Part shown: in pieces, positions 12,037 through 32,222 of the stretch | How the letters are laid out: each line of letters opens with the position of its first letter | Numbering within the stretch: position 1 is the first letter of the stretch | Origin: Patescibacteria group bacterium | GTDB lineage: Bacteria > Patescibacteriota > Minisyncoccia > Moranbacterales > UBA1568 | NCBI GenBank assembly: GCA_038062975.1 | Contig: JBBTWC010000017.1 | Coordinates: forward strand, 1-51,090 | DNA length: 51,090 bases | Direction of reading: 5' to 3' | The notes under the pieces: generated by a model | The model's database searches: none | Told to the model about the DNA's origin: nothing | Seen by the model: only the letters and a program-made list of their open reading frames with translations | Program-made: the position numbers and the translations under genes

Positions 12037-13308
12037 TTATGCAGATAGAAATTCCTTCCCCCGACGCTTGCGATGGAACGTAATAGCAAAGCGATGCGCT
12101 TCATTGTTCGCCAAAAGGATCTCTCGCTTAAAACGTTCTCTGAGCGCCTCCGGACCAATGAGGCGTTCCGGTTGATGGCGTTCATTTTTCACCACACCAA
12201 TAATAGGAATGGTGAGTTCTGATCCCAAAAGCGCCTGTTCGGCCACACCAAACTGAAGTTTGGCACCATCCACCACAATAAGTTCTGGCAGTGTCCACTC
12301 CGGATGCTGCAACCGACGTTTCAAAATTTCATCGAGCGCAGAAAGATCATTACCATTATGTTCACCGCGCAGTTTAAACTGTCGATACTCACTCGGATTT
12401 GGTCGACCATTTTCTACTACCGTCATCACACCCACACTTGCTGATCCACCAAGATGCGCTACATCATAGGCTTCGATTCGATGTCGCGAGAGTTCACGAA
12501 TATCATCCTTAATAAGCGCCATATCCTGAATGTGCTGAATACCAAACAGTGTTCCTTTTATTTCAGAAGCCCGTTCAAAGTACTGTCCCTTCGCAGCTGC
12601 TTTCATCTCTTTTGTCAGCTGTCGTACCAATGCGCTCTTTCTTCCTTCAAAAAACAATCGGATATGATTAATAGAACGCGCATAGCCTTTAGCCGATACT
12701 TCCGCCATACACACCCCTGGACACAGTCCAATCTGCGCCGAAAAACAAGGTTTTGCTTTCGTCTTTTGTTTCTCGGATAACTCTTCGTATGGCGTACATT
12801 TATCCCGAAAAGGAAAGAGTTTCCGTACAATCTTGAGCGCTTCTTTCAGCCCGCTCCCCGAAGGAAACGGTCCATACATATACTTCACCGGAAATGAAAA
12901 CTTCCCCTGCTCAATATCTCTTCCCCGCACAATCAACACTCGAGGATAGGTTTCCTTTGTAATAACAATCTGATTGTAACTCTTGTCGTCTTTGGCATCA
13001 GAATTATGTATTGGTTGATGCTTCTTGATAAGCTCTGATTCCAACAAGAGAGCTTCCAATACGGAATCCGTTTTCCGGTATCCAATAAAAGTAATCTTTC
13101 CCATCATGAGCTCGATCTTGGGCCCACGAGTTGTTGCGATATCTTGGATAAAATAACTCTTCACTCGATCCCGAAGAGAGGTTGCCTTTCCGATATACAA
13201 AATACTTTTCTGTTCATCCAAGAAAAAATACACTCCCGGAGTTTCCGGCAATGGATTCTTTTTCAGAAATGATTTTAGGCTCACAGCCTTTTCCCACTCA
13301 AACGCCAT
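12037..13308 (-). CDS. uvrC: Excinuclease ABC subunit C, short form lacking the C-terminal (HhH)2 domain
   Basis: It has a GIY-YIG N-terminus (PGVYFFLD..ILYIGKA), a UVR segment (QYFERASEIKGTL) and an endonuclease core (IEAYDVAHLGG ... EAHRFAITFHRKRR). The protein stops at 423 aa. Confidence 0.9.
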   Translation of the reverse strand: MAFEWEKAVSLKSFLKKNPLPETPGVYFFLDEQKSILYIGKATSLRDRVKSYFIQDIATTRGPKIELMMGKITFIGYRKTDSVLEALLLESELIKKHQPIHNSDAKDDKSYNQIVITKETYPRVLIVRGRDIEQGKFSFPVKYMYGPFPSGSGLKEALKIVRKLFPFRDKCTPYEELSEKQKTKAKPCFSAQIGLCPGVCMAEVSAKGYARSINHIRLFFEGRKSALVRQLTKEMKAAAKGQYFERASEIKGTLFGIQHIQDMALIKDDIRELSRHRIEAYDVAHLGGSASVGVMTVVENGRPNPSEYRQFKLRGEHNGNDLSALDEILKRRLQHPEWTLPELIVVDGAKLQFGVAEQALLGSELTIPIIGVVKNERHQPERLIGPEALRERFKREILLANNEAHRFAITFHRKRRGKEFLSA

Positions 13309-13761: not shown

Positions 13762-13790
13762 GAACAACAAGGTCCAAAGGACCAAAGGAA

Positions 13791-13966: not shown

Positions 13967-14374
13967 CTAGTGCCGGAGCCTCTTCTTCGGAGGCAGGCTT
14001 TCGGCCGACTCTTTCACTGCCCGCTTATAGGCCGTCTTGACCAACTGGTCACGGGCGTTCTTGCGGTAGGTCTTGAAGGTGATCCGGCCGTTGTGCGCCT
14101 GAGCGGCGGCGAGGTCGGAAAGGAACGACGAGTCCACCGGAAAGACCTTGTGCGGCTTGCCGTAGTTGTCGAGGAGCCGAACACGGTGGTCCGTCTCTTC
14201 GTCATCCTTGGCGGCCGGCAGGTTCTTCTTGATCCACTCGTAGGCGGCATCGCTCGTCCCCTTGACGAACCAGTTGTCGAGCGCCGAGACCAGACTCAGG
14301 TGAGCCCGGGGACGACGATCTTCTTGGCTCGGGCCACGATCACGCACCCGCAGAGCGGAATTTTGTACCTGCAT
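13967..14374 (-). CDS. Orphan hypothetical protein (135 aa), paralog of 14570..14956
   Basis: AAGGGG lies upstream of the ATG. It shares NWFVKGTSDAAYEWIKKNL / AWFVVPQSDAATIWLRSHL and AAAQAHNGRITFKTYRKN / CRAHQAHAEIRFEIFREE with its neighbour. Differences at conserved residues are synonymous (GAT/GAC, GCC/GCT). Confidence 0.6.
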   Translation of the reverse strand: MQVQNSALRVRDRGPSQEDRRPRAHLSLVSALDNWFVKGTSDAAYEWIKKNLPAAKDDEETDHRVRLLDNYGKPHKVFPVDSSFLSDLAAAQAHNGRITFKTYRKNARDQLVKTAYKRAVKESAESLPPKKRLRH

Positions 14375-14434
14375 TTCTAATAACCCCTTGTTTTGCTTGC
14401 AGAGAATACAAAAAGCGTCCGAAAACGCCTCCTG

Positions 14435-14463
14435 AGAATACCCGAAAGAGTACCCTCTGTCAA
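14435..14463 (-). promoter_or_regulatory. Candidate sigma70 promoter for 13967..14374
   Basis: Minus strand reads TTGACA (14463-14458), 17 nt spacer, TATTCT (14440-14435). Confidence 0.5.
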
Positions 14464-14475
14464 TGTTTTATGGCC

Positions 14476-14517
14476 TAATAAAAGGTTCGAGGGAGAGGCG
14501 CCGTTGGCACCCCTCCC
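14476..14517 (-). terminator. Rho-independent terminator of 14570..14956
   Basis: 12-bp GC-rich stem (GGGAGGGGTGCC / GGCGCCTCTCCC on the minus strand, two G-U pairs) with a 3-nt loop. It is followed by TCGAACCTTTTATT. Confidence 0.6.
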
Positions 14518-14569
14518 TTCTGTCGCTTCCTCTTTCGCTGATCTTTGTCAGCTTTCTTCTTGTGGTCAA

Positions 14570-14956
14570 CTACTGGTTGCAGCCGCAGGCCTGCTGGTAG
14601 GACTTCGGAATGATCGCTCCTCCGGGATGTTCTTCCCGAAAGATTTCGAACCGAATTTCTGCGTGAGCCTGATGAGCCCTGCAGAGTTCGGTCATACGCG
14701 AATCCATCAGACGATAGGCCCGATATTCTCCGCCAGCCTTGTCCCTCTTGGTAACCCGGATATCTTCGCCGGGCTTTTCCTTCAGGTGACTACGCAGCCA
14801 AATAGTAGCGGCGTCGCTCTGCGGAACGACGAACCACGCGAGCTCGGGCGCAACCGCGAGCTTGGCCCGTTTCTGCTTAGCCTTGGATCCAGGAGCCCCC
14901 TGGGTGCGAAGCGAAGCAGTGTTTGTACCACCCTTACGCGCAACTTGGAATTTCAT
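14570..14956 (-). CDS. Orphan hypothetical protein (128 aa from MKFQV), paralog of 13967..14374
   Basis: A GAGGG RBS lies 5 nt before the ATG at 14956. The track ORF extends to a TTG at 14977. The protein ends in ...QQACGCNQ. The 10-nt TATTAGAAAT found upstream of its paralog also occurs here. Confidence 0.6.
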   Translation of the reverse strand: MKFQVARKGGTNTASLRTQGAPGSKAKQKRAKLAVAPELAWFVVPQSDAATIWLRSHLKEKPGEDIRVTKRDKAGGEYRAYRLMDSRMTELCRAHQAHAEIRFEIFREEHPGGAIIPKSYQQACGCNQ

Positions 14957-15003
14957 TTTGCCCTCGCTTATTTCCAAGATTTCTAATACGCATTCCGGAT
15001 GGA

Positions 15004-15034
15004 GTTCCTAGACACTTCACACCTGTCTAGGAAC
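15004..15034. repeat. Perfect 11-bp inverted repeat (hairpin) in the GC-rich non-coding stretch
   Basis: GTTCCTAGACA, then cttcacacc, then TGTCTAGGAAC. Other hairpins lie at 15099-15131 (10 of 11 bp), 15160-15187 and 15232-15250. Confidence 0.85.
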
Positions 15035-15289
15035 CCCGGGTGTTAAGAGCGCCACAGTGCGCGATCATGCGCCAGGCACTCAAAAGGGAAAAGTCTTTCT
15101 TACCTCAGGGTCCCTCGAGTCCTCAGGTAAGCGCGTGCCGTTTTCGACATCGCGAAGAATTGATGGCGAAGATCAGACTTCGATCAATCACCGTGATACC
15201 CATCACAAACCCCTATTCTAAGTTACTCCGAGAAGCCAAACTTCGGCTTCACCCCTATCCTACTCCCAGAGACAAAACTGTCAAACCTC

Positions 15290-16372
15290 TTATTTTCCAA
15301 ACCGACTATGAAAAAAGCTACTCGTACGTTCCATAAAAATTGGCCACTGCGAAGCAAATTCGTGTCCTTCTCCTTGGTACACAAAGTATTCAACATTCTT
15401 TCCTTTAGACTGCAGAAGCTCATAGGTTTCTTGTGACCATTCGATCGGTACATCCTCATCTCGTGTGCCATGATGAATCTGAACCGCTTGATTAATACGA
15501 TCTACATACGCAGTCGCAGAAATTGCGTTCCAGAAATCCGGATTTTCTTCAGGAGCACCGTAGATCCGTCGTATTTGCTCTTCTGTCTCCGGTCGCTCTT
15601 TCATCCAGCGCTCATAGCTGTCCCGGTAATCCATGCTCACAGGCGCATACAACACAAAACCTTTTACCAAATCCGGAAAAGTCACCATAATTGTCTCAGC
15701 AATTCCACCTCCCATAGAGTGTCCCATGATTCCAATATTTTCTTTATCTATATATTCAAGCGAAGAACCTCGAAGAGCATAGATAGCGTTTACAACGTCT
15801 TCTACATATCCGAGCCTCTCTTCGAGAGGGTCTTCATCGGTCTTGGTTGATTGCGCATGATTACGATAGTCGGGATGAAAAACAACGAAACCTTGTTTCG
15901 CAAGATAATCCTGCTCCCTACGCAGCCCTCGGCCGTTGGTATAAATGCTTGTATCAATATGTCCATGAGCAAGAATAAGTACAGGAAACCCTCCCTCTGG
16001 AGGCGTACTTGTCGGCACATTCATAATCCCAGAAAGAGTAAGTTCTCCACCTGTATAGGTAACGTAGTAACGAGTATAGGATGTATTTTTCTCCTGAACC
16101 TCACCAAATACAAGGTCGCGCCCGTCAAACTTCTTTACCGCTAGAAGTCGAAGGGTAAATGACGGAACCTCACCATTCTTCATCGCTCCAGTGATAGTAT
16201 CTTCTGTCTTTTCCGAAACTTCATCCTTCACTGTCTGCTTCCCTATATCTAAGTTTTTATCAAAATTCATCTCACTTTTCGGAGTTTTCTGATCTCGCAT
16301 CAGAAATAATCCAACTGAAAGGAAAACGAAAAGGAACAATACTCCAACAATGATTGTCTGTTGCTTATTCAT
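15290..16372 (-). CDS. Alpha/beta hydrolase, S9/dienelactone-hydrolase-like serine hydrolase with N-terminal anchor
   Basis: Nucleophile elbow GIMGHSMGGG, later HGTRDEDVP and GEGHEF. The N-terminus has a TM/signal segment. Confidence 0.8.
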   Translation of the reverse strand: MNKQQTIIVGVLFLFVFLSVGLFLMRDQKTPKSEMNFDKNLDIGKQTVKDEVSEKTEDTITGAMKNGEVPSFTLRLLAVKKFDGRDLVFGEVQEKNTSYTRYYVTYTGGELTLSGIMNVPTSTPPEGGFPVLILAHGHIDTSIYTNGRGLRREQDYLAKQGFVVFHPDYRNHAQSTKTDEDPLEERLGYVEDVVNAIYALRGSSLEYIDKENIGIMGHSMGGGIAETIMVTFPDLVKGFVLYAPVSMDYRDSYERWMKERPETEEQIRRIYGAPEENPDFWNAISATAYVDRINQAVQIHHGTRDEDVPIEWSQETYELLQSKGKNVEYFVYQGEGHEFASQWPIFMERTSSFFHSRFGK

Positions 16373-20364: not shown

Positions 20365-20664
20365 CTACAGAATGCGAAACGTTACACTTACTACATCGCC
20401 ATCAAATATTCCCTCAGCTTTGCGTACAGCAGCCTTCAGAGCAATCAAATACTTTTTCTCTTTAGTCGGAAACAGTGTTGTCTTCCAGGTAGTTTTCCTA
20501 ACCGTTACTTCTACTGGGACATATCGAAACCCTACTGTCTTTACCACATTCTTTCGTACCTCCTCTGCCATCTTAGAATCCACATACACAAAATACCAGC
20601 TTGCCGGCTCTACCGTATATTTCCATACCTTTCCCCTGAGTTTGAAAATCTTCTTTACAGCCAT
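20365..20664 (-). CDS. DUF1905-like protein
   Basis: The start is taken at MAVKK. WYFVYVDSKMAEEV...VEVTVRKTTWKTTLFP resembles the DUF1905 beta-barrel family. Confidence 0.55.
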   Translation of the reverse strand: MAVKKIFKLRGKVWKYTVEPASWYFVYVDSKMAEEVRKNVVKTVGFRYVPVEVTVRKTTWKTTLFPTKEKKYLIALKAAVRKAEGIFDGDVVSVTFRIL

Positions 20665-20671
20665 ACTCGTA

Positions 20672-20890
20672 TTATAAAATTTCAAATACCTTCTTTTTCC
20701 CAGTCGCACCAGAACGTAGTACTATCTGCGACTTCGGAATTTTCAAAAACCGAGAAAGAATTTTGATGAGCGCAATATTTGCTTTCCCCTCTACTGGAGA
20801 TGCCTTTACGGAAACTACAAAATGCGTCTCGTCTATCTTTTGCACAGCTTCTTCGCGTGCGTTCGTCTTAGCGGTTACGAAAATTCTCAT
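20672..20890 (-). CDS. DUF167 / YggU-like protein
   Basis: VSVKASPVEGKANIALIKILSRFLKIPKSQIVLRSGATGKKKVFEI matches the conserved YggU core. Confidence 0.75.
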   Translation of the reverse strand: MRIFVTAKTNAREEAVQKIDETHFVVSVKASPVEGKANIALIKILSRFLKIPKSQIVLRSGATGKKKVFEIL

Positions 20891-20941
20891 ATATTTCACA
20901 CAAAGTTCCTAAGAAAAGCATAGCACAGCTCGTTTCTGGGT

Positions 20942-20972
20942 AAAAAAAGACGACCACTTAGAGGCGGGTCGT
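20942..20972 (-). terminator. Rho-independent terminator of the 21431..21008 gene pair
   Basis: Minus strand reads ACGACC, an 11-nt loop, GGTCGT, then CTTTTTTT. Confidence 0.6.
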
Positions 20973-21007
20973 AAAAGCTTCAGTTGAAGCGGCCTTGGGA
21001 AAATAGT

Positions 21008-21397
21008 TCACGAGTAGAGTGGGTCGAGCGGATGCCGGACTTTATATTTGTAAACGGTGTAACCAGAAAGCGTGTCCAGACCGATCGGAAGAACTTCTTG
21101 TTCTATAAACTCAAATCCGTATCCGCCATGCATCATCCGCTTGAAGTCATCCGAAAAGATCGGCTGAACCTCGCCTTCTCGCCACGCATGGCCATCGGAA
21201 ACGAAGACTTGCGGAGGTTCTCCGAGACAAATCATTTGCGTAAGCATGTTCATAAAGCCAAAAAACTCAGGAGTGGCCTTAACATCTGATCCGTGAGGCA
21301 GGCTTTGGTGCATGACGCTCGCAAAAGCCTCTCTCGCCTCGTCACTCCTCCACAACGGCAGGCCGAGGAGGCAAAAAGCGCGAACAGGGATTATCAT
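21008..21397 (-). CDS. Orphan hypothetical protein (129 aa), paralog family member B
   Basis: A strong RBS, AAGGAGGAGGTGAG, lies directly upstream. Family motifs are RAFCLLGLPLW and GEPPQVFVSDGH. Confidence 0.65.
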   Translation of the reverse strand: MIIPVRAFCLLGLPLWRSDEAREAFASVMHQSLPHGSDVKATPEFFGFMNMLTQMICLGEPPQVFVSDGHAWREGEVQPIFSDDFKRMMHGGYGFEFIEQEVLPIGLDTLSGYTVYKYKVRHPLDPLYS

Positions 21398-21430
21398 CTC
21401 ACCTCCTCCTTTTCTTTGGTGCGTGTGAAG

Positions 21431-21907
21431 TTAGACTCTCTGCCCAGTCAGCCCACGCCGAAGGCGCGAGAAAAATCCAGGCCCTGTTGGTTTGCAGTAC
21501 GCCGTGTTCGGAACAACGGCAAAGTAGCCAAGTGATCCAAACATGAAAAAGTCGGGAAAGGACCTCTCTCCGGGTTGCACGGCGATTTGCATTTCCTGAA
21601 GCGCCAGAATCTCCGTCTCTTCGAAAATGAGCTCGAGAGTCTTGCGCGACAGGATACTCGAATAGTCGTAGTCAAACAGCACAAAGTCCGTCACGAAAAA
21701 TTTCGGGATAATGCCTTGGGTAATATCTTCCGCTAGGACCGAGTCGATCGCCGGCATCTGCCGAACGAAAACCGGGGCGATACTTTGCCCGAGGTGCTTC
21801 TCCAGAAATCCACGGAGTTGAATCCGTAGCTCCCGGCTCTGCCATGCATCATCCCCCAAAAGGCAGATGACGCGGAGTGGCGCTTGGCCACTTTGTACCG
21901 TTTCCAT
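21431..21907 (-). CDS. Orphan hypothetical protein (158 aa), paralog family member C
   Basis: GGAGAAAGG lies upstream. Family motifs are RVICLLGDDAW and GIIPKFFVTDFV. It lies 33 nt upstream of member B on the same strand. Confidence 0.6.
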   Translation of the reverse strand: METVQSGQAPLRVICLLGDDAWQSRELRIQLRGFLEKHLGQSIAPVFVRQMPAIDSVLAEDITQGIIPKFFVTDFVLFDYDYSSILSRKTLELIFEETEILALQEMQIAVQPGERSFPDFFMFGSLGYFAVVPNTAYCKPTGPGFFSRLRRGLTGQRV

Positions 21908-21980
21908 CTGCCTTTCTCCATCTCGGGGTTGTTAAGCAACAATATATCAAGATGTCACAAAAAAAGACCCTCGTCAAAGC

Positions 21981-22262
21981 CTAAGCCAAAAAGAGGGAAA
22001 TCACGTACAAAGTGGCTATATTTTGAAGAATCACCACGGGAATACCAACAATGAAATACCATTTCCGTGTCTTGTGCCGAAAGGCCAGCATCCCCAGATA
22101 CACCCCAATACTTCCAAACATCACCGCCATGAAAAAAAGCATTCCTTCGGATATCCGCTCCGCTCCCGCTACCCGTGACCGAGACTTATCCCACAACATT
22201 ACCAAAAACGTTGCAAGATTAATTGCAAGAAAAATAGCTAGTAAAATAATCTGGATATTCAT
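21981..22262 (-). CDS. DUF1294 membrane protein
   Basis: The start is taken at MNIQII. LWDKSRSRVAGAERISEGMLFFMAVMFGSIGVYLGMLAFRHKTRKWYF is the DUF1294 core. Confidence 0.8.
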   Translation of the reverse strand: MNIQIILLAIFLAINLATFLVMLWDKSRSRVAGAERISEGMLFFMAVMFGSIGVYLGMLAFRHKTRKWYFIVGIPVVILQNIATLYVISLFLA

Positions 22263-22304
22263 ACTAAAATAAAATTTAGCATTAGCATCAATAAGCACCA
22301 TTCT

Positions 22305-24629
22305 TTACTTATTTTGACTTACTTGCGGGGCTTTTTGATAAAGATTTTTCTGAAAAGAAAAGAATGTTGAACGAATTTCCTCTACGCTACCCAAGGACTG
22401 CTCTGCATTTGCAATAGCATGATATTTCAGATTAAGAAGTACCGGGAGCTTCTCTTCTCCTAACTCTTCTACACCCTTCTCTTTATACTTTGACAATATG
22501 AAATCCAAAAACTCCTTATTTTCATCATCAGCTCCTTCAAAAATCTTTTCTTTAGTACTTTCTACTCTTTCTTCTCTTGTAACAGTAGGCGTCAAGAAAG
22601 AAATGTACGAAAGCACATCCAAGAGATCGCACTGCTCTGCATCAATAACTTTCTGCAATTGCTCCAAATCATTCTTCTGATATCCAGCATCAGCCAATTT
22701 ATCAAATAATATCTGCCTCTCTACCGGGTCTGACCATATTTTTCGCAGCTCTTCTTCAGAGCTAAAAAACTCTGGCATCACACCTATTAAGTTATCCATA
22801 AACTCCTGAATAGACAGAGGCTTACCATCCGCACTCCAAAAAGAGGTTGAAATCATGTGCTGAATTTCTCGTTCTTTTCCGTCTCGTAGTTTAATCTTCA
22901 GTCTTTGCGGTCGCTCGACCGGATCCTCTGAAGGTACAGAAATTGGCTTATCAACAATGCCCATAGGTTTGACAGCCTTAGGTTCTCCGGCAACTTCAAT
23001 CACCTCTGCTGCATCACCATCCCATTCTGGATCAGCAAAGTGATGATAAGCATCCACAAAGTCATAAATGGTAAAATATTCCTTCCCGTCAAACAGTCTT
23101 GTGCCGCGCCCAATAATCTGCTTGAACTCAATCATGGAATTCACCAGGCGCATCAGAACTATATTCCGCACATTCCTTGCATCTACACCCGTAGAGAGCT
23201 TCTGCGAAGTTGTTAAAATAGTTGGGATAGTCTTTTCGTTGTCCTGAAATTCTCGGAGGTATTCCTCTCCCCTCGCCCCATCGTTTGCTGTCACCCTTAC
23301 ACAGTATTTAGGATTTTTACTTTTACTCATCTGATTAACCAGATCTCGTACCAATGCTGCGTGCCCCTGATTAGCGCAGAAAATAATTGTCTTTTCATCT
23401 TGGTTAATATCATCCAATACAATACGAACGCGCTTAGCCTCTCGTTCTGTTATGACAATCGTGCGATTAAAATCACCTTCCTCATATATTTTTCCTTCTT
23501 CTACCTCTCCTTCTATAATCTGATCATCGCTAGTATACACATAATCATCCAGTGTAGTCTGAATACGCTTCACTTTGAATGGAGTCAGGAACCCATCATT
23601 GACGCCTTGCTTGAGAGAATAAGTATAGACTGGCTCACCAAAATATTTGTAAGTATCTACATTATCTTGCCGCTTTGGAGTGGCTGTGAGACCGAGCTGT
23701 ACCGCTGGTGAGAAATACTCAAGGATTTTCCGCCAATTCCCCTCATCATTGGCCCCTCCGCGATGACACTCGTCTATAATAATCAGATCAAAAAAATCAG
23801 CTGGATATTCACCAAAATACGGCGAACCGTTAGTCCCGCTCATAAAAGTTTGGAAGATGGTGAAAAATACACTCCCGCCCATAGGTACGCTACCAGTCCT
23901 ACGGATATCAAGTGGGTTGATACGCACTAGAGCATCCTGTGGAAATGAGGAAAATGAATTGAAAGCCTGGTCAGCCAGGATATTGCGGTCAGCCAGGAAA
24001 AGTATTCTCGGTCGACGGCTCCCATCTCGATTCAGATTCCAACGTGAATGAAAGAGCTTCCAAACTATCTGAAAAGCCACTGCCGTCTTGCCGGTCCCCG
24101 TCGCCATAGTAAGGAGTATCCGATCTTTTTCTTCTGCCACAGCAGAAAGGACATTATTGATAGCAATTTCCTGATAGTAACGCTTACCTATCTCCCCTTC
24201 GGGCATGACAGAGGCAAATTTCTCCTTCCATTCATTCTGGTCTGAGTAGGTCTTGCGCCACAGCTCCTCAGGCGTTGGAAATTTCTCTATATCACTCTCC
24301 TTGCCACTTTTCATGGACATCTCGTAGATATCTCTGCCATTAGTAGCATAGGTATAGTCAATCTGCAGTTTTTCGGCATAGGCCTTTGCCTGCATCACTC
24401 CCTCACTCACCAGCAACCCCTCCTGTTTAGCCTCTATCACGGCCATCTTCTGGTTCTTATAGACAAGAATATAGTCAGCTATTTCTGGTCGTGAGCGAAT
24501 CCCGCCTGGATTGATCTTGCCATCAGTAATACGAAACTCCCGAAGAACCTTGGATTCCTCGACTTCTCCCCAACCACTAGCCTTGAGCTTAGGGTCTATG
24601 TATTCTGCTCGTGTTTCTGCTTCATTCAT
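22305..24629 (-). CDS. hsdR: Type I restriction enzyme R subunit (EcoEI-like short HsdR)
   Basis: HsdR_N start MNEAETRAEYIDPKLKASGWG. Helicase motifs are MATGTGKTAVAF, IIDECHRG and TATPKR. The C-terminal tail is helical. Confidence 0.93.
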   Translation of the reverse strand: MNEAETRAEYIDPKLKASGWGEVEESKVLREFRITDGKINPGGIRSRPEIADYILVYKNQKMAVIEAKQEGLLVSEGVMQAKAYAEKLQIDYTYATNGRDIYEMSMKSGKESDIEKFPTPEELWRKTYSDQNEWKEKFASVMPEGEIGKRYYQEIAINNVLSAVAEEKDRILLTMATGTGKTAVAFQIVWKLFHSRWNLNRDGSRRPRILFLADRNILADQAFNSFSSFPQDALVRINPLDIRRTGSVPMGGSVFFTIFQTFMSGTNGSPYFGEYPADFFDLIIIDECHRGGANDEGNWRKILEYFSPAVQLGLTATPKRQDNVDTYKYFGEPVYTYSLKQGVNDGFLTPFKVKRIQTTLDDYVYTSDDQIIEGEVEEGKIYEEGDFNRTIVITEREAKRVRIVLDDINQDEKTIIFCANQGHAALVRDLVNQMSKSKNPKYCVRVTANDGARGEEYLREFQDNEKTIPTILTTSQKLSTGVDARNVRNIVLMRLVNSMIEFKQIIGRGTRLFDGKEYFTIYDFVDAYHHFADPEWDGDAAEVIEVAGEPKAVKPMGIVDKPISVPSEDPVERPQRLKIKLRDGKEREIQHMISTSFWSADGKPLSIQEFMDNLIGVMPEFFSSEEELRKIWSDPVERQILFDKLADAGYQKNDLEQLQKVIDAEQCDLLDVLSYISFLTPTVTREERVESTKEKIFEGADDENKEFLDFILSKYKEKGVEELGEEKLPVLLNLKYHAIANAEQSLGSVEEIRSTFFSFQKNLYQKAPQVSQNK

Positions 24630-24641
24630 AGGTTTATCATA

Positions 24642-25778
24642 TTACAGTTCTCCAGCAAAAGCTTTTTGGAGAACGGACTTCTTGAGCTCTTCTAAATCTA
24701 CCAATTTTTGTTTGTAGATAGCTTCTAGATTTTTAGTTTCAGCGGATAAAGCGTCCAGCTTTTTGACAATGACTTTTTGATCAGGCACTGACGGAAAAGA
24801 AATTCTAATACTTCTGATGATAGGCATATTCAGACCACGCCTATCATTACCCGCATCTCCAGTTAATTTCCTTATCTCTTGATAACGACTATTTAGAGCT
24901 TGATAGAGATATTCTGGTAGCAGCTCTTCTATTTTTTTAGGATAAATACTAACTAAAGACTGATTACAGGTAGCTTTCACTCTTAACAAAGCTACTGATC
25001 CTCTTGTTTTTCCTTGACCATTAAGAGCGATTAAAACAGAATTAATCGGAAGAAATTTAGCATTAGAACTTTCATATCCCTCTTTTGTAATTCTCCCTTC
25101 ACAATCAAATATCTCTTTCTTGTGAATATCTCCAGAAACAAGCCATTTGATCTTTCCATTTTGAAAATATTCCAAATGACCCCTACTAGGAGTACCTCCT
25201 GTCATAAGATCACACACTTCACCTATAGACTTAGAACTCCAATCTTTTTTTGAATCCAGAAAAATACTTTGTGCATACGACTCAAAAAGCTCGCGAGAAT
25301 TTTTTATTTGCTGTTCAGTAATTCTCTTCAACTCTTCAATCTGAGCAAACTTCTCATCCAAAATCTTTACGGTCCTTTTTTGTTCTGCAAGTAGTGGAAT
25401 TGGAACTTGAATCTCTTTCAACAATCTATAATGTCTTGCATAACCCAACTGCTTAAAAGTGACACTCTGTAGAAAGTAGAAGAAAAATTTCGAATCAATA
25501 CCATCTTTTGTTTGTAATATCTTTACTCCATCTGCACCTAAAACAAAATCAAAATCTATATACTTAAGGATCTGCGTGTGATCACCGAAAATTATCACTG
25601 GTTTTTTCACCAAGAATAAGTCTCTCTTATCATTCCAATAGCCATTTATAGTCCCTATCTCCTGTGAGACTACTGGGAATTCTCCCGATTCCAAAAAGTT
25701 CTTACGCTGAATCTTATTCGTGTAAGTTAGTTTAGTCAAACAGTCCTCAAAATCTCTTAATTGCCAGCTTGTTCTCAT
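24642..25778 (-). CDS. hsdS: Type I R-M specificity subunit (two target-recognition domains)
   Basis: Two repeated TRD halves are separated by helical spacers (LAEQKRTVKILDEKFAQIEEL and the C-terminal KKLDALSAETKNLEAIYKQKLVDLEELKKSVLQKAF). Confidence 0.88.
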   Translation of the reverse strand: MRTSWQLRDFEDCLTKLTYTNKIQRKNFLESGEFPVVSQEIGTINGYWNDKRDLFLVKKPVIIFGDHTQILKYIDFDFVLGADGVKILQTKDGIDSKFFFYFLQSVTFKQLGYARHYRLLKEIQVPIPLLAEQKRTVKILDEKFAQIEELKRITEQQIKNSRELFESYAQSIFLDSKKDWSSKSIGEVCDLMTGGTPSRGHLEYFQNGKIKWLVSGDIHKKEIFDCEGRITKEGYESSNAKFLPINSVLIALNGQGKTRGSVALLRVKATCNQSLVSIYPKKIEELLPEYLYQALNSRYQEIRKLTGDAGNDRRGLNMPIIRSIRISFPSVPDQKVIVKKLDALSAETKNLEAIYKQKLVDLEELKKSVLQKAFAGEL

Positions 25779-26839
25779 ATTTTAGATGAATCACTCCCCT
25801 GATCTGTTTCTTTGTCTTCGATAAAGCTACTCTTCTCTTCAAGCGCTAAAATTTCCTGATCGAGATTAATACGATCTTCTTCTTTGGGCCAGATATAGTC
25901 ACCCACCTGTTTCCATATTTCTATGTCAAACTTTTCACTTTTATCTTGAAGATGGTTAAGATAAAATTTATTTATATCGGAGTCACTTGCAATCCAATTA
26001 ACTTGTTGATTATTAAGCAACGCTGTAACTAAGCCAGCTAATTGTTCATCAGAAAAACTAGCATATTTATTTAGTCTACTGATTATCCCGTGGGTTGATA
26101 AAAAGTTTTCAGAATTAATTAAATCTTCTATTAAACTATTTTTCTCTTCTTCTATTTTAAATTCAATTTTAATATCATGTTCGGTAAAAAAACTTGTTAA
26201 TCTATGATAAAAATAAATTTCACTAGTCTTTTTTTTATGCCACTCATCAACAAGATAGTCTTTCAATTCATCTTTATTTATTGCACTTGAGTAATCACCG
26301 TCAGTACTCACTATAATAAAATCACCTTCTTCTGTAACTTCAGCCAATAAACTCTCCCAATTTATTTCATCACCGAAGCTACGGTCTTTCTTCCCTGGAG
26401 GACGACCTAATCTATGCCTCTCGACAGCTAAGTGCAGGTATTTATCTGATTCAATTAAAATACTTTTTTCTTTTAATGTTTCAATAACTATATCCGCCTT
26501 AAGCTGCTTACTTTGAATATCATTATTAATTGTTTTACTAAGTTTTGATTTCAACCCATTAAGTACCTTCTGAGCCCTATTGATATCAGCATATTCTTTA
26601 TAACTTTTACAAAAAACTGGCATAGGTACTGCTGATGTGTATTCAGTAAATTTTTTATAAGCCTGACCAAGCCTATTGTCACGATTTTTCATGACTTCGT
26701 GTTGAACCTGAGTCGTAAGAAACAATTTAATGTCACCAGAATCAATCAAGTCTGCTAACTTATTTAATTGATCTAAATCTTCATCATGAAAATCATAAAA
26801 ATTCAGAAGTATATTTGAATCTAAAAAGAGTAATTTCAT
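25775..26839 (-). CDS. PIN-like (DUF4935-like) predicted nuclease embedded in the type I R-M operon
   Basis: ATGA overlaps occur at both ends (25775-25778 with hsdS, 26836-26839 with hsdM). The N-terminal acidic pattern is FLDSN, QVQHEV, FGDEINWE, VSTDGD. The PIN call is motif-level only. Confidence 0.6.
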   Translation of the reverse strand: MKLLFLDSNILLNFYDFHDEDLDQLNKLADLIDSGDIKLFLTTQVQHEVMKNRDNRLGQAYKKFTEYTSAVPMPVFCKSYKEYADINRAQKVLNGLKSKLSKTINNDIQSKQLKADIVIETLKEKSILIESDKYLHLAVERHRLGRPPGKKDRSFGDEINWESLLAEVTEEGDFIIVSTDGDYSSAINKDELKDYLVDEWHKKKTSEIYFYHRLTSFFTEHDIKIEFKIEEEKNSLIEDLINSENFLSTHGIISRLNKYASFSDEQLAGLVTALLNNQQVNWIASDSDINKFYLNHLQDKSEKFDIEIWKQVGDYIWPKEEDRINLDQEILALEEKSSFIEDKETDQGSDSSKI

Positions 26840-28287
26840 ACCATTTTTTTAATTCCTGTTTGAATTTTTTCAATCTCTTTATCTATCCTTTCCATATCGT
26901 TCAAAATCTCCCTCGGACTACGCAAAGCAACTTCTTCCGCTTTATTCGGATTCTTGACTGACAAATCCCAGGTCTTTTCATTAATATTCGCTACATCTAC
27001 TGACCATGAATTTCCACTTTCTCCCTGAGTTTTCTGTAATTTCACAAATTCCTCTAAGTCTTTCTCATTAAGAGAGTTAGTCTTTCCGAGATTACGCCCT
27101 GGATTGAGTTGATAGTACCAGATTTTCTTGGTTGGAATTCCTTTCTCAAAAAAAAGCACTACTGTCTTTACTCCGGCCCCCTGAAAGGCTCCTCCAGGTA
27201 AATCTAGTACCGTATACAAATTACAACTCTCCAAAAGCATTTTACGAAGACTCACTGAAGCATTGTCAGTATTCGAGAGAAAGGTATTTTTGATAACTAT
27301 CCCTGCTCTGCCCTTAGCTTTAAGCATCTTGATAAAATGCTGCAGAAAGAGAGAGGCAGTCTCTCCTGTTTTAATAGGAAAATTCTGTTGGATTTCTCGT
27401 CCTATACCTGCTCCAAAGGGCGGGTTGGCAAGAATAATATTATATCGATCCTTTTCTTGAATATCGTTGAGATTTTCTGCCAGGGTATTCGTATGTCTTA
27501 TATTTGGCGCTTCTATCCCGTGAAGAATCATATTCATGATACCTATGATATAGGCTAGTGACTTGATTTCTTTTCCATAAAAAGTCTCATTCTGCAGTAT
27601 CTGCATCTGTTTGGATGAGAGTCTGATCTGATTCTCAGTCAGATAGTTATATGCTTCCACCAAGAAACCCGCAGAGCCACAGGCTCCATCGTATACTTTG
27701 TCTCCAATTTTTGGATTTACTATTCTGACAATTGTCTTGATAAGCGGACGAGGCGTATAGTATTCTCCTCCATTGCGACCAGCATTGCCCATTCTTTGAA
27801 TTTTAGCTTCGTACAGATGCGAGAGCTCGTGCTTCTCCTCGTAAAGACGAAAATGCATGCCATCTACTATATTCAAAATCTCTCGCAGTTTATAACCACT
27901 TGATATTCTATTTTTCAGCTCACTAAATATCTCTCCAATTTTATACTCAATAGTATCTGGTTCTTCTGCTTTGAATTTCTTAAGATACGGAAAAAGCATG
28001 AGATTCACAAAATCATTCAAGTCATCACCATCTAAGGCCTTATGGTGATCTAATTTTCCATCTTTAGTCTTGGGGCATGCCCAAGAATTCCAACGATATT
28101 TCTCCTCTAGAATGTACTCGTATTGCTTACCTGACAGTGCCGCTTCTGTTTTCTTAATCTCATCAAGGTCATCAAGATATTTAAGGAAAAGAATCCAGGA
28201 AGTCTGCTCCACATAATCAAGTTCCGTGGCACATCCCGAGTCTGAACGAAGGACATTATCAATATTTTTGAAAGCTTGCTCAAACAT
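26836..28287 (-). CDS. hsdM: Type I R-M N6-adenine DNA methyltransferase subunit
   Basis: Motif I is YDGACGSAGFL and motif IV is ILANPPFG. The HsdM_N-like start is FKNIDNVLRSDSGCATELDYVEQTSWILFLKYLDD. Confidence 0.93.
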   Translation of the reverse strand: MFEQAFKNIDNVLRSDSGCATELDYVEQTSWILFLKYLDDLDEIKKTEAALSGKQYEYILEEKYRWNSWACPKTKDGKLDHHKALDGDDLNDFVNLMLFPYLKKFKAEEPDTIEYKIGEIFSELKNRISSGYKLREILNIVDGMHFRLYEEKHELSHLYEAKIQRMGNAGRNGGEYYTPRPLIKTIVRIVNPKIGDKVYDGACGSAGFLVEAYNYLTENQIRLSSKQMQILQNETFYGKEIKSLAYIIGIMNMILHGIEAPNIRHTNTLAENLNDIQEKDRYNIILANPPFGAGIGREIQQNFPIKTGETASLFLQHFIKMLKAKGRAGIVIKNTFLSNTDNASVSLRKMLLESCNLYTVLDLPGGAFQGAGVKTVVLFFEKGIPTKKIWYYQLNPGRNLGKTNSLNEKDLEEFVKLQKTQGESGNSWSVDVANINEKTWDLSVKNPNKAEEVALRSPREILNDMERIDKEIEKIQTGIKKMV

Positions 28288-28373
28288 GCCTTGTACTTCA
28301 TTAAATACTTCGACAAAATTAGATTACCATAAAAATGACCTTTAATATAGCCTTTTTCTGTCTTAATTTAAGC

Positions 28374-28397
28374 AAAAAACCTGCCGAAGCAGGTTTT
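28374..28397 (-). terminator. Rho-independent terminator separating the HD-like gene from the R-M operon
   Basis: AAAACCTGC, cgaa, GCAGGTTTT. On the minus strand it is followed by TTTTTTG. Confidence 0.75.
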
Positions 28398-28405
28398 GGA
28401 AGGAA

Positions 28406-29320
28406 TCAAACTTGGTCTGTGGATTCTGCAGGAAGGAAGCGTTTGTAGCCCATGTCGTCTAGCAGGATCTGAAGATTCTCTTTGGTACTCTTGGATTCAT
28501 CGTAGAGCTTCTGACGGCGTTCGGCGCGTTCTTCGCAGAGCTTGATACTCTCATCAAAACGAGTAAGCTTGTTTTTTACAAACTCTGGAACTTCTTCGCG
28601 ATTCCAATATATTTTCTGGCCACCGGCATACGCCACCTGACTATTGGTCCAACGAATAACTTCTTGGTACAAGGCTTTCAAGGTTTCTTCATCCAAAGTG
28701 TCGAGCTGTGGGAGAAATCGATCTTCATTAAATACATTGTCACCATCTTTGAGAAAGTGTTCTGGATCACGTCCGGCTGTCCCGAGATCGGCTGCGGCTA
28801 CTGCCCAGGTAACGGGATGAGATTCTTTTGTCAGACTTGGCTGAATAACTGTCATCAACGTTACCTCGAAGCTTGGGATTGTTCCCTCAACTCCCTCGTC
28901 AATAAGACGAATATCTTTTTCATCAAGCTCGAGTCCTTCTTCCTTCAACAGCTCTTGAATATGCTTTCCGCTTCGCATTTCAATAGCACCTGTTTCTCTG
29001 GCTCGGCGCATACCGATACCGTTTAATGCCGGTTGCATGGTATAGGTCTGATCAATATCATGACCACGACCAATAGTCTTGGCAATCATCTTTTCTTTTG
29101 CGCTCACTTGTTCTTCTGGGAGCTCTTCGAGAAAATCTACTGCTACATCCCCTACCCCGACGCTATGGTCAGGATTGTGATATTCCATCTCACTAAAGTT
29201 CTCTTGAAGTTCGGCCAAAAGACGCTCGTTTACTTTTTCACAAGCTTGTCGAACTTTTTCCAATTTTGCTTCCGGACTTTCCTGATTCGGTGCAGCAGGA
29301 GGCATTTCAAATCTGTTCAT
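28406..29320 (-). CDS. Hypothetical protein with possible HD-type metal-dependent phosphohydrolase motif
   Basis: YHNPDHSVGV ... GRGHDIDQ fits the H...HD pattern. The rest is unrecognised. Confidence 0.5.
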   Translation of the reverse strand: MNRFEMPPAAPNQESPEAKLEKVRQACEKVNERLLAELQENFSEMEYHNPDHSVGVGDVAVDFLEELPEEQVSAKEKMIAKTIGRGHDIDQTYTMQPALNGIGMRRARETGAIEMRSGKHIQELLKEEGLELDEKDIRLIDEGVEGTIPSFEVTLMTVIQPSLTKESHPVTWAVAAADLGTAGRDPEHFLKDGDNVFNEDRFLPQLDTLDEETLKALYQEVIRWTNSQVAYAGGQKIYWNREEVPEFVKNKLTRFDESIKLCEERAERRQKLYDESKSTKENLQILLDDMGYKRFLPAESTDQV

Positions 29321-29381
29321 ACTGATTGTATTAAGGTGTAAGTCATAGCTATTTTAGCAAAAATAGCTCTTTTCAGCCAAA

Positions 29382-29942
29382 TTACATTTTATTCGCCCGA
29401 AGCGTTGCTCGATGCTCCAAATATCTTGGAAGAGTCTTTTCCATTAATTTCCAGAATTTCTGAGAGTGATTAAACTCCTTCAAATGACACAGTTCGTGGA
29501 CAATAACATAGTCTGCGAGTTCAGGGGCAATGATGGCAATCTTGTAGTTAAACGACAGATTCCCCTGCTTTGAACAACTACCCCAACGAGTCTTCTGATT
29601 ACGAATTGAAACCCTGTTCCACTGGAAGCCGTAAAATTGATTGAAGTGCTCCAATCGTTCCTCTGCTAATTTTCTCGCCTGTTCTTTGTACTGCTTATAT
29701 TCCTTATCACTGCCTTTGATAAACGTATGCGCTGGATGCTTGATAAAATAGTCGAGCTTTTCAAAAATCCATGTAGCACGACTGACAAGAAAACGCTCAA
29801 CCGCTCTCTGGCTCATACGCCACGGAACAGAGACAGAAACAGAGCCGTCTGGATAGACGGAGAGGCGCATATACCGCGTTCGGCGATTCTTCCGAAGGGT
29901 ATATTTCATCTTTTGCTCTTGGATGATAATTTCCTGTTTCAT
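29382..29942 (-). CDS. DUF45 / YgjP-like zinc metallopeptidase (M48-related)
   Basis: Motifs seen: HELCHLKEFNHSQKFW (HExxH), RWGSCS, and LRKNRRTRYMRLSV. Confidence 0.85.
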   Translation of the reverse strand: MKQEIIIQEQKMKYTLRKNRRTRYMRLSVYPDGSVSVSVPWRMSQRAVERFLVSRATWIFEKLDYFIKHPAHTFIKGSDKEYKQYKEQARKLAEERLEHFNQFYGFQWNRVSIRNQKTRWGSCSKQGNLSFNYKIAIIAPELADYVIVHELCHLKEFNHSQKFWKLMEKTLPRYLEHRATLRANKM

Positions 29943-30045
29943 ACGGTAATTGACTCACTTCCTCCTCTATTATAGACTGTAGCTGCATGTGCCGTACACT
30001 CCCTTGCTGAAAATGCCCTTGGGAGTTCTTTTTTTCAAAACCCCT

Positions 30046-30576
30046 ATGACCCGAAATAGAAGCGAAAAAACACAGGAAGAAAAGGCAGAAAGCCTGGAAC
30101 TTTTGGCCCTGACAGCTACCAAGTATATCGGTTCACTTCCCTCCCTCATTGCTCATTCCCTCTTTTTCGTCGGTATTTTTTCCTTGTCTCTCTTTGGGTT
30201 TGGGTTTGATCAGATCCTCCTTATACTCACTACGGTCGTCTCACTCGAGGCTATCTATCTTTCCATCTTTATTCAGATGACCGTCAATCACCAGAGTAAA
30301 CAGATTGCTGAAGTCAGTGAAGATGTGGAAGATATCGTAGAAGACATTGAAGGGATTTCCGAAGACATGGAAGAAATTTCCAAAGACATTGATGATATCC
30401 AAGAAGACGTTGAAGAAATCAGCGATGATGTGGAAGAGCTGGGAGAAGAGATTGAAAAAGATGATCAAGAAGATGCCAAAGAACACGCTTTGGAAGTTGA
30501 AAAGATTGAAAAGATCGAGGTCCTCTTAAACACCCTCCTGACCGAAATCAAAGACATCAAAGAAAAGAAGGGTTAA
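30046..30576 (+). CDS. DUF1003-like membrane protein with acidic heptad-repeat tail
   Basis: Two TM helices end in SLEAIYLSIFIQMTVNHQ. Then comes EDVEDIVEDIEGISEDMEEISKDIDDIQEDVEEISDDVEELGEEIE. The start is uncertain (GTG at 29989 or ATG at 30046). Confidence 0.6.
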   Translation: MTRNRSEKTQEEKAESLELLALTATKYIGSLPSLIAHSLFFVGIFSLSLFGFGFDQILLILTTVVSLEAIYLSIFIQMTVNHQSKQIAEVSEDVEDIVEDIEGISEDMEEISKDIDDIQEDVEEISDDVEELGEEIEKDDQEDAKEHALEVEKIEKIEVLLNTLLTEIKDIKEKKG

Positions 30577-32222
30577 TAAGTGAGGCACCCCGCAGGGAAA
30601 GTCACTTCTTCAGAAACAATATCAGCTATCGTAAACGAAGCGCTCAGAGTTCCGAAAGGAAGAGACTCTGGAGCGTTTTTTTCTGGTTTGTTTTCTGAAA
30701 GAAAGAGGTGATGCAATCCAGCTGGCACGGACTCTTCTCCACGCATATAGCAACTCGGGTAGCCAAGCTCTTTCGAAAGGACATAGTACATAGATTTCGT
30801 ATAGCGACTTTCTCCAGAAATGAACACGGGCTCGCCCTTGGGAAAATGTTGGCTCGCCCCTTTCCCAATAGCCCTCAATTGTCCCAGAGTTACCTTGGGC
30901 TCAGAACCGAAACGAAGGTCCCGAGAACTTTCTTCAGCAGAAACTTGCGAACGAGCTAGCTCACCAAGAAACAAAAGGGTTGTCTGAAGATTAATTCCTA
31001 GAATAACAATCCCGAAAAAGAGAATAATGCGTTTCCACCACAGACTCGATGAAAGACTGAGTATACACTCTATTCCCAGACCCAAGAGAATAAAGAAGGC
31101 CGGTACAATACCGAGATAAAAGCGCGTCTGCACTTCATAGGCAACAAGGATTGTCACAAGAAAGAATCCAGCACTCCAGAGGAGAATAAACGAGAGATCC
31201 CTCTTCCGCCGAGCGTCTTTTTCTTTCTTCCATCCAAGGAAAGAAACTATCAGAACAAATGTAAACAAAACCAAAGCCGAAAGTGTATACGGCATCGCTT
31301 CGTCACACTTCTTATCACACTTGAGAGAGAAACCTTTGAAAGCAATGACATCTGTATCTTGATTTCCCGTATCCATAAGCCACAGATTCCGTGCATTGTG
31401 CTGATAGGCACGGATGACTTTCTCAATACTATTATGTCCTTTGTCTTGATATGTATCATCTTGTACCGCACCAAAAAACTTTCCCATATTTCCCCCGCCC
31501 GTCTGATACTCAGAGAGAAATATTGGACCTTGCATTACCACAATAATACTCAAAGCTAAAAGAACTTCTTTCCATTTCAAAGTTCGAGAAAAAAGAATAA
31601 AGAGAACGAGGCTGAAACCAAGTGCGACCGTTGGAACCAAATGAAGTTGCGCGATGATACCAAAGGCAAATGCCGAAGAAACTAATAACCAAAGACGCTT
31701 CCTCCCAGTTGCATCAAGCGCGGAAAGAAAAAACACCGTAAAAAGAGCTGTAAAAAACGGAAGGGAATTTGGGTTCCAAGCAAAACGTGAAAAGGTAACC
31801 AAGAGCAAAGAAACACTCGAAAGGGTCGTAAGCCACAAAGAAAGCGGTACAGAAAAAAAGCGTCTGAAGAGTAAAAAGAAAACTGGAATTACCAAGATAC
31901 CAAACAAAAGATCTGGGTACGCCAGACTCTCTACTGATCCACCAAAAATCTTTCCAGAAAGGTATTGGAAATAATATGTTGCAGGGCCAAGTTTGAATTC
32001 CGTACTCCCAGCCTGAGGACCAAGGAGCGGGAGTGTCTGAAACCCTTCCTGAAAAGCCGTGTGCATAATAAGTGCGTCGCGGGCTTGATCAGATTTCAAC
32101 ACTAACAAATCACTCTGATGCCAAACACGAAGCCCAACACCGAGAAGCAAAATAACGAAAAGCGCTCCCACAACAGGGCGCTTCATATTCTTGTGAATTG
32201 TTTCTAAAAGTATACTCATCAC
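30573..32222 (-). CDS. Polytopic membrane glycosyltransferase, GT39/ArnT-like
   Basis: 549 aa with more than 10 hydrophobic segments and a soluble C-terminal domain. The overall architecture is PMT/ArnT-like. I verified no catalytic motif. Confidence 0.5.
   Translation of the reverse strand: MMSILLETIHKNMKRPVVGALFVILLLGVGLRVWHQSDLLVLKSDQARDALIMHTAFQEGFQTLPLLGPQAGSTEFKLGPATYYFQYLSGKIFGGSVESLAYPDLLFGILVIPVFFLLFRRFFSVPLSLWLTTLSSVSLLLVTFSRFAWNPNSLPFFTALFTVFFLSALDATGRKRLWLLVSSAFAFGIIAQLHLVPTVALGFSLVLFILFSRTLKWKEVLLALSIIVVMQGPIFLSEYQTGGGNMGKFFGAVQDDTYQDKGHNSIEKVIRAYQHNARNLWLMDTGNQDTDVIAFKGFSLKCDKKCDEAMPYTLSALVLFTFVLIVSFLGWKKEKDARRKRDLSFILLWSAGFFLVTILVAYEVQTRFYLGIVPAFFILLGLGIECILSLSSSLWWKRIILFFGIVILGINLQTTLLFLGELARSQVSAEESSRDLRFGSEPKVTLGQLRAIGKGASQHFPKGEPVFISGESRYTKSMYYVLSKELGYPSCYMRGEESVPAGLHHLFLSENKPEKNAPESLPFGTLSASFTIADIVSEEVTFPAGCLTY

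Follow-up and report, generated by a model that had tools for sequence, protein, structure and literature searches.

Several defence modules are encoded inside type I restriction-modification (R-M) operons. In PrrC, an ABC-type NTPase is joined to an anticodon-nuclease domain, and the protein is physically masked by the R-M complex. It is reported to occur almost exclusively in embedded form in type I R-M systems (Payne et al. 2024, 10.1101/2024.01.29.577857). Other modules embedded in such systems are TgvAB on VPI-2 of Vibrio cholerae (PMC11411939), DarTG2 in enteropathogenic Escherichia coli (EPEC; PMC12255303) and the rlo genes of Campylobacter. TgvAB protects alone, and the island containing DarTG2 protects against phages (same sources). 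Moreover, the PADLOC PDCs are 145 untested candidates whose genes are embedded in BREX, DISARM or type I R-M systems ('guilt-by-embedding'; Payne et al. 2024, 10.1101/2024.01.29.577857). Here, we describe a gene in such a position on a stretch of 51,090 nucleotides from a Patescibacteria group bacterium (assembly GCA_038062975.1, contig JBBTWC010000017.1; 'the window' in the following). It encodes a protein of 354 aa and lies between hsdM and hsdS of a type I R-M operon. A first-pass annotation of the window could not say whether this architecture had been characterised. In kind it has been: defence genes embedded in type I R-M systems are well documented and systematically mined.

The protein family has also been described. 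PF16289/DUF4935 is a computationally recognised PIN-like domain of unknown function, which is 'usually mono-cistronic' (Matelska, Steczkiewicz & Ginalski 2017, PMC5499597). The same authors noted PIN-like genes coupled to type I R-M and stated that antitoxin elements are sometimes missing. In the literature, the terms 'DUF4935' and 'PF16289' were found in that study and in one unrelated genome paper alone. Two PIN systems of E. coli come from the DefensePredictor study (Science 2026, PMC13092281). In DS-5, mutation of the PIN catalytic residues abolishes anti-phage defence. For DS-3, a one-protein PIN system without antitoxin, auto-inhibition was suggested.

The window gene fits the class of defence-type cargo inside type I R-M operons, as it shares the strand of the hsd genes and occupies a variable slot. 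Comparison with its relatives points to a swappable cargo gene, i.e. a widespread and mobile defence candidate, and not to a built-in part of the restriction enzyme. Our favoured reading, held with moderate confidence, is that of an autonomous, horizontally mobile single-protein PIN_12 nuclease, which is carried as cargo in a variable slot between hsdM and hsdS and forms a defence layer independent of R-M.

The PIN gene within the hsd operon

The first-pass annotation had listed four co-directional ORFs with 4-nt overlaps at both ends of the second. All four were found on the minus strand, the hsd identities held by profile matches, and both overlaps were seen by direct reading of the sequence:

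26836..28287, minus strand: hsdM, methyltransferase subunit (483 aa; Pfam N6_Mtase with 212 bits, and HsdM_N; PADLOC MTase_I with 523 bits)
26836..26839, minus strand: ATGA overlap of hsdM stop and PIN start
25775..26839, minus strand: PIN_12-family cargo gene (354 aa), between hsdM and hsdS
25775..25778, minus strand: ATGA overlap of PIN stop and hsdS start
24642..25778, minus strand: hsdS, specificity subunit with two target-recognition domains (378 aa; Pfam Methylase_S twice, 113.5 bits; PADLOC Specificity_I with 251 bits)
22305..24629, minus strand: hsdR, restriction/translocase subunit of the EcoAI/EcoEI (type IB-like) family (774 aa; Pfam ResIII, EcoEI_R_C and HSDR_N_2)

HsdR also matched NCBIfam NF046051 (EcoAI/FtnUII family) with 827 bits at a cutoff of 550. 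These matches make the operon a type I R-M system of the EcoAI/EcoEI (type IB-like) family. All three subunits, including the two-domain HsdS, are intact and co-directional, with sizes as in close relatives. The two junctions of the PIN gene read ...ATGGTATGAAATTA... and ...AAAATATGAGAACA..., and a gap of 12 nt separates hsdS from hsdR. ATGA overlaps of this kind are the usual signature of co-transcription and translational coupling. Neither tRNA genes nor flanking direct or inverted repeats nor integrase-type borders were found around the operon. A promoter and terminator scan of the operon gave counts equal to the shuffle expectation and was hence uninformative.

The 354-aa protein matched Pfam PIN_12 (PF16289) with 67.6 bits (cutoff 32). 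The match covered residues 4-183 and the entire profile (positions 1-172 of 172). Pfam PIN_8 matched as well (36.7 bits), and an identical NCBI record is named 'PIN domain-containing protein [Patescibacteria group bacterium]'. The assignment as a PIN-like nuclease, made earlier from four spaced acidic positions, was thus borne out. The parts of the protein are as follows:

26174..26839, minus strand: PIN nuclease domain (residues 1 to ~222), with a long helical insert at residues 43-125
26819-26821 (D7), 26696-26698 (E48), 26492-26494 (D116), 26369-26371 (D157) and 26300-26302 (D180), minus strand: candidate catalytic residues
25880..26170, minus strand: six-helix C-terminal domain, family-specific (residues 224-320; AF2 model of the domain only with pLDDT 94.7 and pTM 0.86)
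25778..25879, minus strand: acidic C-terminal tail (residues 321-354; pLDDT <50 at residues 319-325 and 343-354)

The four acidic positions are D7, E48, D157 and D180. Together with D116, they are invariant among 34 close homologs. An alignment of 69 relatives spanned the candidate phyla radiation (CPR), Proteobacteria, Firmicutes, Chloroflexota, Planctomycetota, Acidobacteriota, Bacteroidota, Cyanobacteria and Spirochaetes. In this alignment, D7, D116, D157 and D180 are again invariant, and E48 is conserved in at least 90%. Because the residues are kept across both sets, the four acidic motifs correspond to the conserved PIN tetrad. Also conserved among the 69 relatives are a loop G-N/R-P-P-G-K (GNPPGK, residues 145-150) and N160-W161. 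The ORF is a predicted PIN-like nuclease with a complete PIN active site (D7, E48, D157 and D180, plus D116). A search of PHROGs with the PIN protein gave no match.

The AF2 model of the whole protein had a mean pLDDT of 85.2. Five strands (residues 2-6, 37-42, 127-129, 173-177 and 208-211) alternate with helices, the long helical insert lies between strands 2 and 3, and residues 228-345 contain helices. In PDB sequence searches, the single protein had no match and the family profile had one, the VapC-like AF_1683 (1w8i), weak (E 0.4) but aligned at the PIN motifs. Among structure searches, one viral 'PIN like domain' model matched at E 1.5e-4. The earlier description of the C-terminal part as helical and unrecognisable still applies: the C-terminal domain had no Pfam or PDB-sequence match, and Foldseek with the domain alone gave nothing significant in the PDB (best E 1.1, ARM/TPR-like). 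Its conserved positions include S243, F246, T249, H250, N277, Q279, D286 and D288. A profile of the domain found 1,312 cluster representatives (clusters at 50% identity) among 1.84 billion representatives. In every full-length match the PIN domain came first, the C-terminal domain lay at about residues 223-320, and the protein had about 315-360 aa. Since all of them share one layout, the helical domain is a fixed part of the family and not a shuffled module. The idea of a portable sensor module was dropped, as a search for fusions of the domain gave the same two-domain layout and fragments alone.

In many family members, from many phyla, the C-terminus is an acidic stretch that runs into [ILVM]-P-F, typically D-D-I-P-F. 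This ending was counted in 20 of 78 genome loci, 23 of 44 close homologs and 20 of 58 diverse full-length representatives (examples: L003, L005, L009, L011, L022, L035, L052 and L077; P0007, P0011, P0018 and P0024). The window protein ends in …DSSKI and has no D-I-P-F ending, and the same holds for the E. coli copy. The C-terminal tip of the bacterial single-stranded DNA-binding protein (SSB) has the same motif, and E. coli SSB ends in DFDDDIPF. The SSB-tip-like tail could serve for docking, act as a bait or plug the enzyme in auto-inhibition. The literature yielded no paper on mimicry of the SSB tail in defence.

A different ending, EE[YF][YF]KH, marks a subclade from Clostridia. Its gene lies between hsdM and hsdS in seven of nine members (embedded: L015, L018, L019, L030, L034, L044 and L053; not embedded: L033 and L078), compared with 7 of 71 in the rest. 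The difference was significant (Fisher p = 3e-5), the subclade being a single clade whose shared ancestry is uncorrected in this value. The EE[YF][YF]KH tail of this R-M-embedded clade could be an interaction peptide.

Cargo slot, exchanged cassette and relatives

Hundreds of proteins from several phyla are 80-91% identical to the HsdM of the window. We surveyed the slot in the six closest HsdM relatives on long contigs (81-91% identity). The gene directly after hsdM was not hsdS in any of the six, and it was a different gene each time. In five of them hsdS followed further downstream, and in the sixth (the P0201 contig) no hsdS was within reach. The slot contents were:

L086, 3987-4628: unrelated 213-aa protein without Pfam match (weak match to PADLOC PDC-M14B, E 4.5e-6)
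L087: KAP NTPase
L088: AAA_15/AAA_21 ATPase
P0201 contig: HTH-M78 peptidase and SMC-like ATPase
L089: unknown genes and a transposase
L090: Bro-N protein

The junction of hsdS and hsdR also holds extra genes in these relatives (SocA/Panacea-type, HTH and Fic). Several of the embedded genes match PADLOC models, namely PDC-S13 (342 bits; Bro-N/PDC-S13), SoFic (143 bits; Fic/SoFic), AriA/GajA-like (an ATPase), PDC-S20 and pAgo-associated SIR2-like. In close R-M relatives the slot is taken by other genes, and the majority of these match models of known or candidate defence systems. A candidate cargo gene without annotation is that of the 213-aa protein in L086.

On either side of the slot, L086 keeps synteny with the window (blastn: 87.7% over 30839..26850 and 88.9% over 24784..20385). 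The first alignment stops just short of the hsdM stop. The second covers the last ~140 nt of hsdS and spans hsdR and beyond. Between the two blocks nothing aligns except 66 nt at 25304..25239, inside hsdS. By these breakpoints, the PIN gene was exchanged together with most of hsdS:

24785..26849, no strand assigned: exchangeable cassette of 2,065 nt, comprising the PIN gene and hsdS minus its last ~140 nt (blastn against L086)

Two earlier statements have to be narrowed. The first-pass annotation had called the middle ORF wired into the operon and not a passenger. The ATGA overlaps are confirmed, but the gene appears as cargo in a swappable slot and not as a built-in part. The block had also been proposed to be acquired as a unit, which fits the joint exchange of the PIN gene and most of hsdS (24785-26849) but not the whole operon.

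The base composition agrees with these boundaries. Two hand counts made earlier were exact (10/60 G+C at 26101-26160 and 27/60 at 37981-38040), and the ORF around the latter (37312..39357) is UvrB. G+C was 0.309 in the PIN gene, 0.351 in hsdS, 0.386 in hsdM and 0.432 in hsdR, with 0.44 for the window. The lowest-G+C tile of 1,065 nt in the whole window starts at 25801, as expected for the AT-rich block described before, but the operon is not evenly low in G+C. The low-G+C block coincides with the cassette 24785..26849. A single AT-rich acquisition of the whole operon was rejected, as hsdR has the window-average G+C and the PIN gene and hsdS alone differ from L086. Defence genes are known for low G+C (PMC13092281), and the dip in the PIN gene is consistent with this.

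At least 395 relatives of the family were found in one-genome-per-species contigs. Neighbourhoods were scored in the 80 best loci, where genes were called and hsd genes were labelled with iterated HMMs. Co-directional hsd genes lay within three genes of the PIN gene in 22 of the 80 loci, on both sides in 14. The remaining 58 had none. According to Pfam, the direct upstream neighbour was HsdM in 12/79 and HsdS in 5/79, and the direct downstream neighbour was HsdS in 7/74 and HsdR in 3/74. By a rough estimate, hsd neighbours are enriched about hundred-fold, a random gene being expected to have them in well under 1% of cases; hence homologs do concentrate beside hsd genes, as had been proposed. 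With PADLOC, the top-25 tables of upstream and downstream neighbours were saturated by R-M models, so that other defence neighbours of the stand-alone loci were unscorable.

The embedded copies are not tied to one kind of operon. Their junctions differ, with the order M-PIN-S in the window, L005, L009, L030 and others, and S-PIN-R in L001 and L003. They occur in unrelated type I families (HsdM ~25-30% identical). L001 and L003 have the closest PIN proteins in the genome-locus set (57%) together with HsdM proteins that are only 27-28% identical to that of the window. One relative at 63% identity (P0005) has the same M-PIN-S-R layout as the window. The closest relative (P0002, 70% identity) is stand-alone and lies beside cyclodipeptide-synthase and acetyltransferase genes. 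A relative at 57% identity (P0007) is found in a non-type-I island with EcoRI-type methylase, GmrSD-HNH, RmuC, NYN, PIN_3 and UvrD-PDDEXK. This island (L083, GCA_034680565.1 contig JAXOUH010044171.1, 3831-13065) is dense and of defence type. Stand-alone copies have variable flanks, and a search of 700 nt around them in the 58 stand-alone loci gave no small ORF conserved as a partner.

E. coli relatives were found at 34% identity (E 4e-50). Among 5,426 complete E. coli genomes, 30 had the gene, in each case on a plasmid of ~90-100 kb and in none on the chromosome. The P1-like phage-plasmid p1919D3-2 (NZ_CP046005.1, L084) was examined in detail. It encodes WP_064670748.1 (316 aa) at 5995-6945, between darB/ulx/lxc and mat, where reference P1 (L085) has its EcoPI type III res-mod genes. 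The E. coli family gene also occurs in the deposited phage JL22.

Two stretches of the window outside the operon were recorded in addition. A stretch of ~1.9 kb (13400-15250) has a G+C of 0.50-0.62, against 0.44 for the window, and contains no long convincing ORF; two ORFs of 135 aa lie in it on the minus strand (13967..14374 and 14570..14977). It is flanked by a putative UvrC-like gene (12037..13308, by sequence features) and a hydrolase-like gene (15290..16372). Rfam gave no hit at gathering score on 13400-15250, with a sub-threshold ctRNA_p42d at 13787-13832 (29.4 vs 50 bits). The stretch may be a foreign insert. The second feature lies at 30305-30456, inside an ORF on the plus strand (29989..30576). 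Here, a 21-nt periodic repeat in seven overlapping copies encodes acidic units of seven residues (…EDVEDIVEDIEGISEDMEEISKDIDDIQEDVEEISDDVEELGEEIE…) in a protein of 195 aa with a hydrophobic N-terminal half.

Readings of the PIN protein

As an autonomous nuclease, the PIN protein would act as a second, R-M-independent layer of defence against phages or mobile elements. Because it has no antitoxin partner, it is probably auto-inhibited, and an infection cue would switch it on. The helical C-terminal domain and the acidic tail are the likely regulatory or sensing part. Once activated, the PIN domain would most likely cut RNA (tRNA, rRNA or mRNA, as VapC-like PIN enzymes do); single-stranded or flap DNA is a possible alternative substrate. 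Such cleavage would halt the replication of the phage, and the cell itself might be lost in the process. What ties the gene to the R-M system would be shared expression and shared mobility, not a physical guard.

Several points weigh against this reading. Defence activity, substrate and trigger are all inferred for the subfamily with PIN_12 and a helical C-terminal domain. Foldseek with the full model gave nothing significant in the PDB: the best neighbour was the PIN-like HARP RNase P (8ssg, E 0.087), and the other non-significant ones included the flap endonuclease T5 FEN and AF_1683 (1w8i). The structural check proposed earlier thus found the alternating strands and helices but no significant PDB match, so that the fold assignment rests on sequence profiles and secondary-structure order. 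The match to PDC-S34, a PADLOC candidate model, was partial (residues 179-304 to profile positions 251-374 of 384), as was that of the E. coli homolog. Housekeeping families occur among the direct neighbours of some relatives. Finally, the joint exchange of the PIN gene and hsdS, together with the tight ATGA coupling, would also fit a partnership of PIN and Hsd proteins in this lineage.

Such a partnership was proposed in the first-pass annotation as an R-M-guarded effector in the manner of PrrC. The PIN protein would be bound and latent on HsdM/HsdS or on the full R-M complex, and a phage anti-restriction protein would free it to kill the cell or the phage. The established precedent of PrrC in the EcoprrI locus speaks for it, and so does the local arrangement: besides the overlaps on both sides in the window, many embedded relatives overlap their upstream gene by 4 nt, embedding is seen in nine of the ten nearest genome relatives and in seven of nine members of the Clostridia subclade, and the PIN gene was exchanged together with the target-recognition regions of hsdS. 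As a family trait, however, guarding is not supported, with 58 of 80 relatives lacking an hsd neighbour and the 70%-identical closest relative standing alone. Other relatives sit in a non-type-I island and in a phage-plasmid slot without type I genes. The embedded copies themselves accompany unrelated type I families at both the M|S and the S|R junction, close R-M relatives carry unrelated cargo in the same slot, and the protein has no similarity to PrrC models. We regard the guard as unlikely. Since the coupling is tight and PIN and hsdS moved together, it is possible for the embedded lineages. Should the PIN protein be a true partner of the methyltransferase core in the window, its CPR relatives and the EE[YF][YF]KH Clostridia, it would be a second PrrC-like guarded effector with an unrelated fold; we are equally doubtful about this. 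In the wider family, the acidic D-I-P-F tail could mimic the SSB tip as bait for SSB-grabbing phage proteins or serve as an auto-inhibitory plug.

The tail would also fit a nuclease of genome maintenance or RNA processing, which would be brought to replication or repair proteins by its SSB-like end while the R-M location is incidental hitch-hiking. A third to half of the family has the acidic stretch with [ILVM]-P-F, T5 flap endonuclease and HARP RNase P are among the weak structural neighbours, and some direct neighbours are housekeeping families. Yet the distribution is patchy (plasmids only, in 30/5,426 E. coli genomes), the G+C is very low, the gene is exchanged as a cassette and occupies slots that otherwise hold R-M or defence-type genes, and the window and E. 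coli copies do not have the tail. This makes a maintenance role very improbable. An addiction toxin would stabilise the R-M operon or its carrier by post-segregational killing, and its antitoxin would be an RNA, an adjacent Hsd protein or the C-terminal domain of the toxin itself. VapC-like PIN proteins are classic toxins, the gene is carried by phage-plasmids, and the coupling of PIN-like genes to type I R-M with sometimes missing antitoxins has been noted (PMC5499597). Against this stand the variable flanks, the lack of a conserved small ORF at the 58 stand-alone loci and the fixed two-domain protein of 315-360 aa, which is unlike VapC; we consider a toxin of this kind very improbable. Even less credible is an accessory nuclease of the type I enzyme that processes or degrades DNA after the single HsdR cut, e.g. 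in CPR bacteria possibly without RecBCD-type exonucleases. Co-expression within the operon and, weakly, the DNA flap nucleases among PIN-like folds would agree with it, but most relatives have no R-M neighbour and the close R-M relatives examined have other genes in the slot.

If the PIN gene is autonomous cargo, as we favour, it draws attention to a large family (at least 1,312 clusters at 50% identity, many phyla) of predicted single-protein PIN nucleases without a partner gene. No new category is opened, because the embedding is established and the protein family is catalogued. The E. coli members on P1-like phage-plasmids, in the slot of P1's own R-M system, offer a tractable representative. 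Operons of the EcoAI/EcoEI-like family represent a natural 'cargo rack' that includes unannotated candidates such as the 213-aa protein of L086, and they could be mined for new ones because a different gene follows hsdM in all six relatives. The SSB-tip-like tail in a third to half of the family is a concrete clue to how a PIN nuclease without antitoxin might be controlled or targeted.

Comparison with known systems

VapC toxins have ~130 aa. The window protein belongs to the same superfamily and shares the acidic active-site layout. It differs in being ~2.5 times longer, with a helical insert of ~80 residues and an extra C-terminal domain. Unlike in VapBC, no antitoxin gene is adjacent, and the flanking genes in the window are hsdM and hsdS.

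The DUF4935/'PIN_12' clusters of Matelska et al. (PMC5499597) are alike in length (~350 aa), in the N-terminal VapC-group PIN-like domain, in the 4-5 conserved acidic residues and in the helical insert after strand 2. That study was purely computational, and the R-M cargo slot, the phage-plasmid location and the tail motif are not described there.

By profile comparison, DS-5B (WP_021513009.1, 376 aa) is the nearest experimentally tested relative found. It contains Pfam PIN_12 at residues 4-174, and the family PIN profile aligned to it over 194 columns (hhalign, Prob 79%, E 1.5e-5). The alignment ends at residue 207 of 376, and the C-terminal half of DS-5B does not align with the helical domain. 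DS-5B also has no PDC-S34 match, and DS-5 needs a second protein, WP_021513008.1 (DUF5830 and an AcrIF4-like domain). A partner of the DS-5 type was absent from the direct neighbours of the PIN gene in the window, which are hsdM and hsdS, and the stand-alone loci showed no conserved partner ORF; the rest of the window was not searched for DUF5830-like proteins. DS-3 was rejected as the identity of the window protein (hhalign, Prob 3.7%).

PDC-S34 was matched by all 69 family members tested. As its N-terminal 250 positions are unmatched, the family is a sister that shares the C-terminal region, i.e. a relative of PDC-S34 and not a member. No description of PDC-S34 was found in the literature.

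With TgvAB, DarTG2 and the rlo genes, the likeness lies in an independent defence module between hsd genes. The protein families differ (GmrSD-like, ADP-ribosyltransferase toxin-antitoxin), and those modules occupy the hsdS|hsdR slot, compared with hsdM|hsdS here. PrrC of EcoprrI is likewise a nuclease gene inside a type I hsd operon and co-expressed with the hsd genes. The window protein matches PIN_12 and PIN_8 (Pfam) and PDC-S34 (PADLOC) alone and no PrrC model. While PrrC reportedly hardly occurs outside type I R-M, the PIN family is embedded in about a quarter of its loci (22/80).

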